The position numbers were made by a program. DNA of 63,687 nucleotides, counting the filler, from Dehalococcoidia bacterium (GTDB lineage: Bacteria > Chloroflexota > Dehalococcoidia > DSTF01 > JACRBR01): NCBI GenBank assembly GCA_041494685.1. It is 3 parts of 3 records of this genome, joined end to end, with 100 filler letters (N's around TTAATTAATTAA, not from the genome) between each part and the next. Parts side by side here need not be neighbours in the genome. Positions count along the whole stretch, not along the records: positions 24,315 to 48,037 come from JBGQBE010000052.1; 2 more parts are not named here. The stretch is one strand, 5' to 3'. Below are positions 33,001-36,000 of this stretch, in pieces (position 1 is the first letter of the stretch; each line of letters starts with the position of its first letter).

Positions 33001-36000
33001 GTCAAGTTTTTCACTTTTGACCGGATCACGGTTGACAGGATCTCCCGGCGGGCGTATAAAGATACCGACGAGTCGGTATTGCTACCGGCCTGGCGGCAGA
33101 AGGACGAAGCGCTCCCTGTTGGGGCGGCCCGGATCGAAGGAGGATAGGCAAATGTTCCGCGTGATGTGGTAAACGGCTGCACCTCAGTCACTCAAGCAAC
33201 ACGAATGGGCTCCCGACCGGGAGCCCATTCGTTATGTAGCGCACTCGGTTCCCTTCTACGCCGCGGCTCTCGGGGCTGCGGCCGCGTGGTGCTCCGTCTC
33301 CTCGTCATGTTCCTGGTACCGGATCTCCACGATCTTGTCCCACGCCAGAAGGAACGCCTGCGCGCACCGCGGGTCGAACTGCGTGCCGCTGCAGCGGATG
33401 ATCTCCTCGCGCGATGCGTCCACCGAGAGCGCGGCGCGGTACGGCCGGTCGGAGGTCATCGCGTCGAAGGTGTCCGCCAGCACGAAGATCCGCGCGCCCA
33501 GCGGGATCTCGTCGGCCGTCAGCCCGCGCGGATAGCCCTTGCCGTCGAACCGCTCGTGGTGCGTCAACACGATCCGAGAAGCGCCGCTGAGGAAGCTGAT
33601 GTCCTTCAGCATGTCGAAGCCGATCTTCGGGTGCCGGCGCATGTCCACCCACTCGTCTTCCGTGAGCGAGCCGGGCTTGTGCAGGATCGTGTCCGACACG
33701 CCGATCTTGCCGATGTCGTGCAGCAGGCCGCCCCGCTGCATGTCCACCCACTCGTCGGTCCCCGGCTCGATACCCATATGGAACGCGATCTCCATCATGT
33801 ACTTCGCCACGCGGATCGAGTGGCCCTTCGTCTCGCGGTCGCGCGCGTCCAGCGCCGATACCAGCGCTTCCAGCGTGCCGTCGTAAGTATCGCGAAGCTG
33901 CTCCGCCATGCCTAAGATGTCCCGGTTGGCCTTCTGTAGTTCGCGGTTACGCTGGTTGAGTTCCTCGACGTTCTGGGCCGTCTTGTCGATGTACTGCTTG
34001 ATCGCGAAGCGCATCATCAGCGGCGGCGCCACGAACGCCAGCAGGCCAAAGTAACTCAACCCCTCGTACGCGACCGCCAGCGCCAGGCCGAGCAGGCCGA
34101 AGACCAGGTAGTGCGGCAGCAGCCATTCGAACTTCTCGCGGAACACCGCCGTGATCGACTGCCGCGTGGCAAGGCTGACCGCCACAGTCACGAGGCTGAT
34201 GTTCATCAGGTAGTACAGCCCGATGCCGAGGACCGCAATCGGGATGAGCCATCCCGTGATCGGCAGGCGCTGCGGCCCCGTCAGCGACACCAGGCTGTGC
34301 ACCATGGCCGCCATCGTGACGTTGACCACGATGACCGAGCCCACGTTGAACAGGCGCTTGTACCAGGCACTGCCGCCCAACGGATCGGTCGCAAGGGCGG
34401 CGAAGGGGCTGGCTATCACGGCGCCGGCGGGGCCGTACAGGAACGCGATCGCAAAGTCGCCGACCATGGCGATGGAGATCGTCGTGTCGCCGTAGATCGG
34501 CACGCGGGTGCGCTCCATCGCGAGCGCCAGCAGCGCCAGCACGACGAATCCGGGGAGATCGTTCGTACTCAGGCGGGGCGCGAAGAACGCGATGCTGAGC
34601 AACCCCGCACCGAAGACAGCCAGGACGTACGCGAGCGCCCTGGGGGGCAGACTCTCGGCCGGTTCCGGCCGGGCGGACGCCACCGGCAATTCGATGATCT
34701 TCGAATTGGGGCCCGTTTCGGAGCGCGCGGGCAGTTCCCGGATAGGCTCGTCGAGCATACGCCCTGCCTGACTGCGTCGTAGCCCCCGACCTCAAGGGCC
34801 TAGTCCATTATCGACGCAATCAGCTTCGGCCCGTAGTGCTAGGCCGCCTCATCAAACTGCAGGGCCATCTGCCGCCGCAGGGAGGAAAGGATCCGCTTGT
34901 GAAGCTGGCAGACACGGGATTCGGACAACCCCATCATCTGGCCAATCTCGTGGAACGGCCTCGCGTCGGAGTACCGCAGGCGCAGGATCGCCCGGTCGCG
35001 GACGCTCAGGTGCTTGAGAGCCAAATCCAGCATCCCCAGCGCGGCGTTGTGGTCGGCGACCTTCGCCGGGTCGCCCGACTCGTCCTCGTCCGCCGGGTCC
35101 AGCGAGGGCGAGCCCTCCCCGTCGCGATCCTGGAGCGCGTGCTCCAGCGAGATGAACTTGGAGCCGGCATGCTTCTGGATGCTGCCCAGCTGCTCGACCG
35201 GCATGCCCATCCGGAACGCGATCTCCTTCTGCGTCGGCCAGCGTCCAAGCACCGCCGAGAGCTCCTGGGAAGCCGCCTCGACCTCCCTCGTGCTCCTGCG
35301 CAGCGAGCGCGGCAGCGGGTCCATCTTCCGGATCGCGTCGAGGATCGAGCCGCGGATGCGGCGGACGGCGAAGCTGGCGAAGCTGGTGCCCCGCTCTTCG
35401 TCGAAGGCGTCCACCGACTGGATCAGGCCCTCGATGCCATACGCCAGCGCATCCTCCCGGTCGAGTCCGAGCGTCTTCTGATTGTCCGTGGACATGCGGC
35501 CGACGACGAACGCCACCAGCGGCATGTGCTTCATGATCATCTCTTGGCGGGCTTGAGCGCTTGCCGTCACCATCGTCGGACCCCCCTCTGCTGCCAAACA
35601 GAAACGCCACCTGTCCAGAGGGAGACAGGCGGCGCTATCGCTTCGACTTCGAACCTGGCGGGGTCCGAGGTGGTCGGCGGCCCGGCTTTCCGCCTGCCTG
35701 GCGGACCCGTGGCTTTGCGTCCTCGCCTCGCGGCGAGTTTGCCCGTTCGTAACCTCTGGACGAACTCACTCCGCCCTCCTGGCCGCGCCTCGTCCACCGC
35801 ATCGTGCAGTACGCTCGACAACCCATAACGCGGCTCATCGCCGTTTGTTACAGGTCCGGACGGGAGAATTTCCGACCCTCCCGCCACAACGAGCCACACC
35901 GGCCACAATTTGTGATGTCAACAACACTGGAAAAACACGCGCCCAGGATGCATACTCTGTAGTTGGACGGCGGATGCCGGCCGATAAGTCTAGGGGACGA

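Follow-up and report, generated by a model that had tools for sequence, protein, structure and literature searches.

A c-di-GMP-I aptamer and terminator upstream of a FliA/WhiG-like sigma factor and HD-GYP gene pair in Dehalococcoidia: a predicted OFF switch

Known c-di-GMP-controlled sigma factors and the present locus

Riboswitches for c-di-GMP are well known, as are sigma-28-family factors, and the systems closest to the one described here come from Clostridioides difficile and Streptomyces. According to an excerpt of PMC6366702, the OFF switch Cd1 (Cdi-1-3) controls the C. difficile flgB operon, which includes sigD, and through this switch c-di-GMP lowers SigD, a member of the sigma-28 family, at the RNA level. 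For Streptomyces, an excerpt of PMC7005675 states that c-di-GMP arms RsiG, the anti-sigma factor of WhiG; WhiG is a sigma-28-clade factor with a non-flagellated developmental role and flagellar-type promoters.

In this study, a window of 63,687 nucleotides (the whole stretch of DNA that was analysed) from a Dehalococcoidia bacterium was investigated. The aptamer, sigma factor gene and HD-GYP gene are listed in Table 1. The combination of GEMM-I aptamer and terminator is shared with C. difficile Cd1, and the sign of control proposed below is the same. The C. difficile sigma gene is buried within a 23-kb flagellar operon; in the present locus the sigma gene comes first after the leader and is paired with an HD-GYP gene. 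The candidate regulon also differs, with flagella and toxins in C. difficile but Tad pili and phosphodiesterases here. The 97.6%-complete draft genome gave no match to flagellin (PF00669), FlhA (PF00771) or FlgM (PF04316); the host is apparently flagellum-less, and the preliminary description had likewise found no flagellin gene.

The best solved relatives of the sigma factor were the WhiG chains of the Streptomyces RsiG-WhiG structures (PDB 6PFV and 6PFJ, E = 7e-37 and 1e-35), followed by FliA chains (7e-27). However, its score on the WhiG equivalog model was far below the cut-off (166.7 vs 343 bits). Control in Streptomyces is post-translational, through a c-di-GMP-binding anti-sigma factor, whereas the sensor here would be an RNA in the leader. 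No description of the aptamer-sigma-HD-GYP arrangement was found in the literature searched, which did not include the two founding riboswitch papers. The new elements are the conserved sigma-28-type -10 box in the spacer that separates the sigma gene from the HD-GYP gene, the cpaB promoter and the enrichment of the box at c-di-GMP enzyme genes.

Table 1. Features of the sigma/HD-GYP locus, in window positions.
Feature	Position	Strand	Basis or remark
Divergent TetR-family regulator gene	36002-36631	+	Pfam TetR_N, TetR_C_6
ECF-type promoter-like element TGTAAC-N16-CGTTA	35826-35852	-	Sequence; ~95 nt upstream of aptamer
Small hairpin GCC-AGGAG-GGC, Shine-Dalgarno-like loop	35773-35783	-	Upstream of aptamer; by eye
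5' switching segment GUCCAGAGGU	35752-35761	-	Can pair with aptamer 3' flank or terminator top
c-di-GMP-I (GEMM-I) aptamer	35673-35753	-	RF01051 whole model; G/A/C at ligand-contact positions; GCGA tetraloop
3' flank ACCUCGGAC	35663-35671	-	Pairs with 5' segment, lengthening P1 (minimum-energy fold of aptamer and flanks)
Intervening hairpin GGACC-CCGCC-AGGUUC, conserved CCCCGCC loop	35651-35666	-	Conserved alignment columns
Intrinsic terminator: 13- to 14-bp stem, loop, then UUUCUGUUU	35593-35636	-	Terminator scan
Shine-Dalgarno region AGAGGGGGG	35581-35589	-	Sequence
FliA/WhiG-like sigma factor gene, 244 aa	34839-35573	-	Pfam/NCBIfam profiles, homologues, solved relatives
Internal sigma-28-type promoter-like element: CTACGG (34831-34836) then GTCGATAA (34808-34815)	34808-34836	-	Sequence
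Membrane HD-GYP phosphodiesterase-like gene, 500 aa	33256-34758	-	Pfam, NCBIfam, motifs
Terminator-like hairpin GAAUGGGCUCCC-GGUC-GGGAGCCCAUUC then GUGUUGCUU	33193-33230	-	Operon end; read from sequence
Second GCCGATAC box	32955-32962	-	8 nt ahead of GTG start of downstream TetR gene (32438-32947)
GGDEF (diguanylate cyclase) gene	31430-32335	+	Pfam GGDEF 1.2e-26

Gene pair, aptamer and leader

The sigma reading frame was open over 34839-35597 (-). The ATG at 35573 sits 7 nt after GAGGGGGG, and homologues aligned from residues 1-9 of the 244-aa form. Both observations make 35573 the more likely start; the form starting at 35540 in the preliminary description is probably too short. With the start at 35573 the aptamer ends 99 nt before the start codon, not 132 nt as calculated earlier. 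The protein matched Pfam Sigma70 regions 2, 3 and 4, with no region 1.1. It scored 182.7 bits on TIGR02479 (FliA_WhiG), just under the curated cut-off of 189.6, as had been noted before. This was by far its best NCBIfam model, and the best model outside the group was SigBFG (106.5 bits).

The earlier profile calls for the HD-GYP product were reproduced, with E = 9.2e-32 for HD_5 and 2e-40 for the NosR-family c-di-GMP phosphodiesterase model. The HD-GYP motifs (LLHDIGK and HHERFDGKGYP) are intact, and 6 to 8 hydrophobic segments lie between residues 41 and 243. The protein is predicted to be c-di-GMP phosphodiesterase-like. The hairpin at the operon end was absent from the list of the terminator scan.

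The neighbouring genes are also largely kept. The divergent TetR gene and the leader share a 250-nt intergenic region, and since the upstream gene is divergent, the leader terminator can act on the leader only. Upstream, all loci of family f1 but L009 had a divergent TetR homologue (56-78% identity), as did two f3 loci at 41-43%. The GGDEF gene was kept nearby in 10/13 long-flank loci, nine at 59-66% identity and L012 at 38%; the sequences of L001, L009 and L010 end short of the GGDEF position.

The aptamer matched RF01051 with 60.1 bits (gathering score 35, E = 3e-09) in the Rfam search, over the full model (positions 1-87), and the score was identical in the whole-genome search. The same score had been reported earlier, with coordinates one base off. 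The aptamer is real, and c-di-GMP is its predicted ligand. The ligand-contact roles of G20, C92 and A47 (Vc2 numbering) are given in an excerpt of PMC5888326. In a pattern search the contact positions were G/A/C, canonical for c-di-GMP, in all 24 unique leaders. The placement of the Vc2 residue numbers on the Rfam consensus positions of these aptamers is our assumption. The fold, the contact bases and the GNRA tetraloop are common to Vc2, other GEMM-I members and the present aptamer; the P1b loop was GNRA in 24/24 leaders. In contrast to Vc2, the canonical CCUAA...UAUGG tetraloop receptor is missing from the f1-type aptamers. CCUAA occurred in 3/24 leaders and was absent from the aptamer of the window. 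An alternative helical receptor for the GNRA tetraloop is possible in f1-type aptamers.

The absence of CCUAA from 21/24 leaders would fit a variant class with another ligand, either c-di-GMP-I-GGC or c-GAMP-type GEMM-Ib, so that the signal would not be c-di-GMP. The GGC variant was reportedly defined by Weinberg in PNAS in 2017. Its model, RF03167, was the best one for 13 loci (60.6-68.8 bits vs gathering score 59), namely 7/13 genome-contig loci, 5/12 class-sample hits and L024, and f1-type aptamers score near or above it. However, the variant-naming position is G in the RF03167 consensus (GCGAA) and A in 24/24 leaders (GCAAA). We take the "GGC" of RF03167 to name its A47-equivalent base. 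The equivalents of C92 and G20 were C and G in 24/24 leaders, and c-GAMP sensors have A at the G20 position. Since the diagnostic base is A in all leaders, the high RF03167 scores reflect overall likeness only. The altered-ligand reading was rejected on this base, and another signal than c-di-GMP is considered very improbable.

Upstream of the aptamer, TGTAAC-N16-CGTTA is a candidate promoter of the leader, which we take to resemble ECF promoters. With a variable spacer, the element was kept in 19 f1- and f4-type leaders inspected by eye, where L001 has TGAAAC. In some relatives the small upstream hairpin reads GGC-GGGA-GCC, that is, with both stem sides swapped (by eye). The terminator hairpin of the window had an energy of -23.8 kcal/mol, and its loop contains CCUCUGGAC at 35613-35621 (-). 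In 21/24 leaders the aptamer was separated from the sigma start by a hairpin (-16 to -34.5 kcal/mol) with a U tract behind it; L006, L030 and L033 had no such terminator.

The arrangement is conserved within the order. The aptamer was found upstream of the sigma orthologue in 13/13 public MAG (genome-contig) loci and at 13/16 in-order orthologue loci drawn from a 301-genome class sample (12/15 without the unpublished genome G230), and its core, as a sequence pattern, preceded the sigma gene in 13/13 metagenome loci. The sigma and HD-GYP genes adjoined in 27/28 in-order loci. Three sampled loci of family f2 gave no Rfam match at E <= 1 and kept the gene pair and its -10 box without a riboswitch. 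The earlier statement of conservation is thus confirmed but narrowed, since one family of the order departs from the arrangement. In a second order, locus L050 has an aptamer before a different FliA/WhiG sigma, which passes TIGR02479 with 195.4 bits, and the aptamer core is present in its relative L117; two loci were found for relatives of this second-lineage sigma in genome contigs. The sequencing runs listed for window positions 33256-36000 numbered 15, all of them DNA from sediment or wetland metagenomes.

Given the canonical contact bases, the terminator (21/24) and the sigma/HD-GYP adjacency (27/28), RNA-level control of the alternative sigma factor by c-di-GMP is the best reading of these sequences, in support of what the preliminary description had predicted. 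The riboswitch very probably controls the sigma/HD-GYP operon.

Switch helix and direction of control

The class I c-di-GMP riboswitch in the leader of the two-gene operon is proposed to act via the intrinsic terminator. The 5' strand of the aptamer closing helix, together with its 5' flank, would have two alternative pairings. With c-di-GMP bound, P1 would hold the 5' strand, the full terminator would form and transcription would stop ahead of the sigma gene. Without ligand, the 5' strand would pair with the emerging terminator top, the terminator would be delayed and the polymerase would read through. The riboswitch is read as OFF because its 5' strand is complementary to, and co-varies with, the terminator top. 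An OFF switch is the probable direction, which had been left open earlier; the C. difficile and Streptomyces systems are both precedents for control of this sign. For the joint claim of a riboswitch-controlled operon with an OFF switch, we estimate a probability of roughly 55%.

Clade-specific complementary pairs of 5' segment and terminator were GUCCAGAGG:CCUCUGGAC, CACCGAC:GUCGGUG, ACACCGA:UCGGUGU and GGCCAGGUCCGAU:AUCGGCCACCGGGCC. Pairing of the 5' segment with the leader's own terminator top averaged -15.95 kcal/mol over 30 leaders, compared with -13.02 kcal/mol for cross pairing, and 0/20000 permutations were as low. For the 24 f1-type leaders the values were -16.36 and -14.11 kcal/mol (p = 5e-5). 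In register, 77.5% of the cells of the switch helix paired, compared with 32-48% when the partner was slid. In minimum-energy folds of the nascent RNA of four representative leaders, the switch helix formed just before the 3' arm of the terminator was complete. By these comparisons, the aptamer 5' strand is complementary to the top of the terminator and co-varies with it.

The evidence on direction is indirect, and other measures were weaker. The z-scores of the 5' segment/terminator duplex were modest for individual leaders (median -1.34). When 5' segments were shuffled in the stepwise folds, 64% of trials still gave 5 or more pairs to the terminator region, a criterion that hardly discriminates, and the observed pair count was matched in 22% of trials on average. 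The f1 alignment showed little covariation in the switch helix, whose score was reached by 98/500 shuffles. RNAalifold on the f1 leaders recovered the aptamer sub-helices and the terminator but neither native P1 nor the switch helix; it paired the CCCCGCC loop in an invariant, uninformative GGC:GCC helix. The reach of the competing helix in f1 leaders is limited to the terminator loop and 3-4 nt of the 3' arm. For the P1-extension helix, 72% of cells paired in register compared with 23-48% when slid, and the own-versus-cross test was not significant (p = 0.28 and 0.38). The extension was weak in some leaders, such as L007 (-3.2 kcal/mol).

The full-length minimum-energy fold retained the terminator in 18/21 leaders, so read-through in an OFF switch would need to be kinetic. 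The same result is expected of a default-off state relieved by ligand, that is, of an ON switch built from the same parts. In an ON switch c-di-GMP would prevent termination and raise the sigma factor and HD-GYP enzymes, giving a negative-feedback, homeostatic loop. Coupling a sensor to an enzyme that degrades its signal is a classic design for a homeostat, and sigma-28-type boxes lie ahead of many HD-GYP genes. The f1 5' segment lies upstream of core P1 and could stay free with ligand where the P1 extension is weak. In f3-type leaders and L050, however, the terminator-complementary segment (CACCGAC, ACACCGA) is the P1 5' strand itself, and therefore no terminator pairing is available to it while P1 is closed around the ligand. 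ON switches usually have an aptamer 3' strand that overlaps the 5' arm of the terminator; here no overlap was seen, and the two are 31-67 nt apart. Taken together, ON control appears unlikely.

The three leaders without a terminator would suit mainly translational or dual control, in which the CCUC-rich terminator loop or CCUCC stretches act as an anti-Shine-Dalgarno sequence titrated by the Shine-Dalgarno-like 5' segment. By eye, L006 and L030 have CCUCC or CCCUC upstream of a G-rich Shine-Dalgarno sequence, and CAGAGG is repeated in the Shine-Dalgarno region of the window. Such complementarity is, however, generic in G-rich ribosome-binding sites, and a strong terminator ending in a U tract is present in 21/24 leaders. 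Mainly translational or dual control is judged quite improbable.

Sigma-28-type boxes, candidate regulon and meaning

A [GT][CT]CGATA box was present in the spacer between the sigma and HD-GYP genes of 25/25 unique loci from three families. Since the HD-GYP gene has its own conserved -10 box, it looks like a target of a sigma-28-type sigma rather than one that is solely co-transcribed. The sigma factor would read sigma-28-type promoters of the form TAAA/TAC-N15-17-GCCGATA, and its proposed targets are the Tad pilus operon and HD-GYP genes, both the neighbouring one and several others. Cognate-type TAAA-N15-GCCGATAA promoters are present in the genome. A canonical site, TAAA-N15-GCCGATA, was found 13 nt before the cpaB frame of the cpaB-cpaE-cpaF-tadB-tadC (Tad pilus) operon; with a variable spacer, both boxes were kept in 20/29 in-order cpaB loci, and the motif was absent from 9/29.

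The distribution of CCGATA[ACT] from -150 to +30 of gene starts was compared with that of control hexamers, on crude gene calls (2470 genes, 77% of the genome covered). The box was found at 8/27 GGDEF or HD-GYP genes and at 84/2470 genes overall (Fisher p = 1.7e-6), while seven control hexamers occurred at 0-2/27 of these genes. In two other genomes the box was at 3/10 HD-GYP genes, compared with 0/10 for each control. A strict genome-wide search for TAAA-N14-16-CCGATA yielded 3 matches vs 0-1 for controls. Because these matches are few, the case for the regulon rests on the -10 box and on conservation. The HD-GYP promoters have degenerate -35 parts, and GATAAT, GATATT and GATACT resemble the housekeeping -10 element too.

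The genome contains a second FliA/WhiG paralogue (C4:79162-79839), 37% identical to the riboswitch-linked sigma factor, and the regulon is therefore not yet assignable to the latter alone. The paralogue might read the GCCGATA-type promoters while the riboswitch-controlled sigma serves another regulon. It passes the family cut-off (190.8 bits), which the riboswitch-linked sigma does not (182.5). At least two matches to the sigma, i.e. a paralogue as well, occur in most in-order genomes, and the f2 loci hold the sigma/HD-GYP box without a riboswitch. Against the paralogue, the box directly follows the riboswitch-linked sigma gene in all 25 loci and three families, and none of the boxes listed lies near the paralogue's own gene. 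The paralogue is a possible reader of these promoters but the less favoured one; the riboswitch-linked sigma is somewhat preferred.

With the OFF switch and the riboswitch-linked sigma as reader, low c-di-GMP would lead to more phosphodiesterase, which would reinforce low c-di-GMP, and the pili would be switched on. The net outcome would be a commitment switch with positive feedback in a non-flagellated bacterium. The complete three-tier circuit, from ECF-type promoter through GEMM-I OFF switch and WhiG-like sigma to an HD-GYP/Tad pilus regulon, is tentative for this order of uncultured, non-flagellated bacteria of the class Dehalococcoidia. If it is true, low c-di-GMP would lock itself in (bistability) and commit the cell to a piliated state, and the second-messenger machinery would itself form the regulon. 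Sigma-28-family factors would then be regulators of the low c-di-GMP state in three separate lineages: Clostridia (riboswitch), Actinobacteria (anti-sigma factor) and Chloroflexota (riboswitch).

By sitting directly on a dedicated sigma gene, a riboswitch would make a small-molecule sensor act as a global switch of transcription. The sigma module itself includes the gene of a predicted c-di-GMP-degrading enzyme, and promoter-like boxes of the sigma type precede a large share of the other HD-GYP genes of the genome and the Tad pilus operon. If these pieces connect, a single RNA element would let c-di-GMP govern how its own turnover enzymes are transcribed, and the sign of the switch would decide between bistability and homeostasis. 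The hosts are uncultured sediment Chloroflexota, and the circuit is small enough to be rebuilt in vitro or in a model host. The results suggest an RNA-gated cascade that feeds back on its own signal, which would give FliA/WhiG-like sigma factors a testable role in flagellum-less bacteria.

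Aptamer and leader of the sigma gene

Rfam matches above the gathering score in the window were a tRNA and a class I c-di-GMP aptamer (RF01051). The aptamer scored 60.1 bits over the whole model against a gathering score of 35, which bears out the preliminary description. On the minus strand, the aptamer was followed by a small hairpin with an almost invariant loop (CCCCGCC), an intrinsic terminator, a strong Shine-Dalgarno sequence, and the ATG at 35573. The terminator was the sole terminator-like site found by the scan of 33000-36300. Since the gene 5' of the leader encodes a divergent TetR regulator, the terminator can act only on the leader transcript. 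In the hairpin 5' of the aptamer, the GCC/GGC stem was swapped for GGC/GCC among relatives. The element TGTAAC-N16-CGTTA, about 95 nt 5' of the aptamer, looks like an ECF-sigma promoter. By eye, it was kept with a varying spacer in 19 leaders of the f1 type, which includes the window, and the f4 type; the f3-type leaders carried a different repeat in this region, CGTTATGTTT...CGTTATTGC.

Features of the leader, the host genome (G000, contigs C4 to C36) and sampled loci of relatives or metagenomes (L numbers); plain positions are those of the window
Feature	Location	Strand	Basis or remark
c-di-GMP-I aptamer	35673-35753	-	Rfam
ECF-like promoter element TGTAAC-N16-CGTTA	35826-35852	-	by eye
Conserved small hairpin with AGGAG-like loop, 5' of aptamer	35773-35783	-	by eye on leaders
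Conserved small hairpin between aptamer and terminator	35651-35666	-	conserved columns
Intrinsic terminator, 13- to 14-bp GC-rich hairpin and U tract	35593-35636	-	terminator scan
GCCGATAC box	32955-32962	-	8 nt 5' of GTG start
Paralogue sigma, 271 aa	G000:C4:79162-79839 (locus L019:6136-6951)	-	TIGR02479, 190.8 bits, over cut-off
ECF sigma gene	G000:C9:21894-22559 = L053:2895-3560	+	NCBIfam
Further GEMM-I aptamer	G000:C5:45035-45121	+	74-88 bits (range of three)
Further GEMM-I aptamer	G000:C35:11658-11746	+	74-88 bits (range of three)
Further GEMM-I aptamer	G000:C36:12529-12616	-	74-88 bits (range of three)
Loci best matched by RF03167	L003, L005, L007, L009-L012, L027-L030, L033, L024		Rfam

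In 13 related loci, the best model was the c-di-GMP-I-GGC variant RF03167, above its gathering score, so the ligand identity needed checking. The diagnostic site is GCGAA in the RF03167 consensus and GCAAA in the parent RF01051. In our mapping of the Vc2 numbering onto these aptamers, the G, A, and C positions inspected here are those that contact the ligand in Vc2 (PMC5888326). All 24 unique leaders had A at the diagnostic position, and all 24 had G 5' of GCAAAC, C 5' of CGA, and a GNRA loop. From these sequence features, the aptamers were concluded to be canonical c-di-GMP sensors, and automatic annotation would mislabel the loci best matched by RF03167, which carry the canonical A. The usual tetraloop receptor was missing from these aptamers, to which we attribute their scores being lower than those of the f3-type aptamers (77-81 bits).

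The host genome contained four GEMM-I aptamers in all. Peptidase_S8 (subtilase) genes lay directly 3' of two of the three further copies, and a reading frame without a Pfam match lay downstream of the third. A divergent HD-GYP gene adjoins the C5 copy. In another family of the class, a c-di-AMP riboswitch fragment (RF00379, L047:1-70, cut by the locus end) was found near a FliA-like sigma gene.

Direction of the switch

A strong terminator was present in 21 of the 24 leaders. A segment that either immediately precedes the P1 5' strand or constitutes it was complementary to the terminator top, and the sequences of this switch pair varied by clade. Both sides were swapped between L130 and the window.

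Switch-pair sequences by clade or locus
Leader	5' segment	Terminator top
Window and most f1	GUCCAGAGG	CCUCUGGAC
f3	CACCGAC	GUCGGUG
L050	ACACCGA	UCGGUGU
L119	GGCCAGGUCCGAU	AUCGGCCACCGGGCC
L130	UGCCAGAG	CUCUGGCA

The 5' segments paired more stably with the terminator top of their own leader than with those of other leaders. Own and cross pairs were compared by permutation, in which significance may be inflated by the kinship of the leaders: the means were -15.95 and -13.02 kcal/mol in 30 leaders (0 of 20000 permutations as low) and -16.36 and -14.11 kcal/mol in the 24 f1-type leaders (p = 5e-5), and 10 representatives gave p = 0.00045. The helix was register-specific in the f1 alignment, with 77.5% of cells pairing versus 32-48% when slid. 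In minimum-energy folds of four representative leaders, the nascent RNA formed the switch helix once the 5' arm and loop had emerged, and at full length the helix gave way to the terminator. The z-scores of the switch duplex per leader were modest, covariation within f1 was weak, and shuffled 5' segments also paired frequently with the terminator region.

P1 of GEMM-I aptamers depends on the ligand, which closes it. In two clades the complementary segment is the 5' strand of P1 itself, so an OFF switch is the simplest reading; judged from sequence and predicted folds, we hold it to be probable, at roughly two chances in three. An ON switch, the alternative, would give homeostasis instead. Another partner was the 3' flank extending P1, whose helix was register-specific and strong in the window; it failed the own-versus-cross test.

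The sigma and HD-GYP genes and their conservation

The ATG at 35573 opens a protein of 244 aa with sigma-70 regions 2, 3, and 4. Its homologues align from residues 1-9, so the start at 35540 given in the preliminary description is probably 11 codons too short. The assignment to the FliA/WhiG family just under the cut-off held: the best NCBIfam model, FliA_WhiG, gave 182.7 bits (cut-off 189.6). The closest solved relatives were WhiG chains in complex with RsiG and c-di-GMP, followed by FliA. The host genome has two FliA/WhiG-like sigma genes, and the paralogue on C4 is 37% identical to this sigma. No riboswitch was found in the 13-kb surroundings of the paralogue, which a hybrid histidine kinase gene adjoins.

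The gene after the sigma gene, starting 80 bases 3' of it, was confirmed as HD-GYP. Its 500-aa product has six to eight hydrophobic stretches as well as an HD_5 domain in which both the HD and the HHERFDGKGYP motif are intact; the soluble HD-GYP domain would cover residues 260-500 or so. The host genome had 17 GGDEF matches, 17 HD-GYP matches in 16 genes, and two EAL matches. The reported lack of flagellin also stood, with no match to flagellin, FlhA, or FlgM in the 3.29-Mb draft (97.6% complete).

The relatives were metagenome-assembled genomes labelled Chloroflexota or Dehalococcoidia, and DNA of the locus also occurred in sediment and wetland metagenomes. In a class sample of 301 genomes, nine of the ten from the same family and all seven from elsewhere in the order had a sigma orthologue (at least 56% identity); the best match outside the order had at most 43% identity. 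On genome contigs, an aptamer with the orientation of the sigma match lay 100-190 nt 5' of it in 13/13 loci (sigma identity 58-84%), and the aptamer core was upstream of sigma in 13/13 metagenome loci. The conservation claimed for the order stood for 13 of 16 in-order orthologue loci (12 of 15 without G230, an unpublished genome) and failed for three f2 loci, where Rfam gave no aptamer even at E <= 1. An HD-GYP gene followed sigma in 27 of 28 in-order loci (exception, L033), and a divergent TetR homologue was upstream in all f1 loci but L009. In another order, at locus L050, a different FliA/WhiG sigma (TIGR02479, 195.4 bits; 36-39% identical to both paralogues) was preceded by a GEMM-I aptamer (79.9 bits), and L117, its 74%-identical relative, also had the aptamer core.

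Predicted regulon and proposed circuit

A genome search for promoters of the FliA/WhiG type gave a single canonical site, TAAA-N15-GCCGATA, 13 nt 5' of the cpaB reading frame of a Tad pilus operon (cpaB-cpaE-cpaF-tadB-tadC; promoter at G000:C9:22660). In 20 of the 29 in-order cpaB loci, both boxes persisted on either side of a spacer that had diverged; all five f2 loci of this set lacked them. In several f3 and f79 genomes, the cpaB match (L068, L072, L073, L076) contained one in-frame TAG, which could reflect two genes, a frameshift, or read-through. The spacer between sigma and HD-GYP genes (80-380 nt) carried a [GT][CT]CGATA box in 25/25 unique loci, with CTACGG 16-17 nt 5' of it in f1; in the window, this promoter-like element lies at 34808-34836. 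Near gene starts, CCGATA[ACT] occurred at 8 of 27 GGDEF or HD-GYP genes versus 84 of all 2470 genes (Fisher p = 1.7e-6); the seven hexamers used as controls occurred at 0-2 of the 27. In two other genomes, the box was found at 3 of the 10 assessable HD-GYP genes and each control at none, the starts of the other 13 of 23 genes lying beyond the DNA examined. These promoter sequences thus make it likely that phosphodiesterases and Tad pili form a regulon of the sigma-28 type, and adjacency suggests that this sigma, rather than the C4 paralogue, may be its reader. Downstream of the HD-GYP gene, the GCCGATAC box precedes a TetR gene (32438-32947), whose transcript may thus be leaderless and driven by a promoter of the sigma-28 type. 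Directly 5' of the Tad operon is the ECF sigma gene on C9, preceded by a gene for a VWA and FHA-like protein. Its best NCBIfam model was the BldN family (147 bits, cut-off 206); together with the WhiG-like sigma, it is reminiscent of actinomycete developmental regulators.

In the proposed circuit, the ECF-like promoter would start transcription of the leader, with a predicted RNA start near 35820 and, on termination, a 3' end near 35595. When c-di-GMP is high, the aptamer would close, the terminator would form, and little sigma would be made; when it is low, polymerase would read through and sigma would be made, which may raise the production of HD-GYP enzymes and pili. The sign proposed here is also that of the C. 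difficile flgB-operon riboswitch Cd1 with SigD, and of the Streptomyces system in which RsiG is armed against WhiG by c-di-GMP. Full-text literature searches turned up no account of a c-di-GMP riboswitch placed immediately 5' of a gene for a sigma factor, in Chloroflexota or elsewhere; supplements might list cases. The parts of this circuit are known; the wiring appears to be a new variant.
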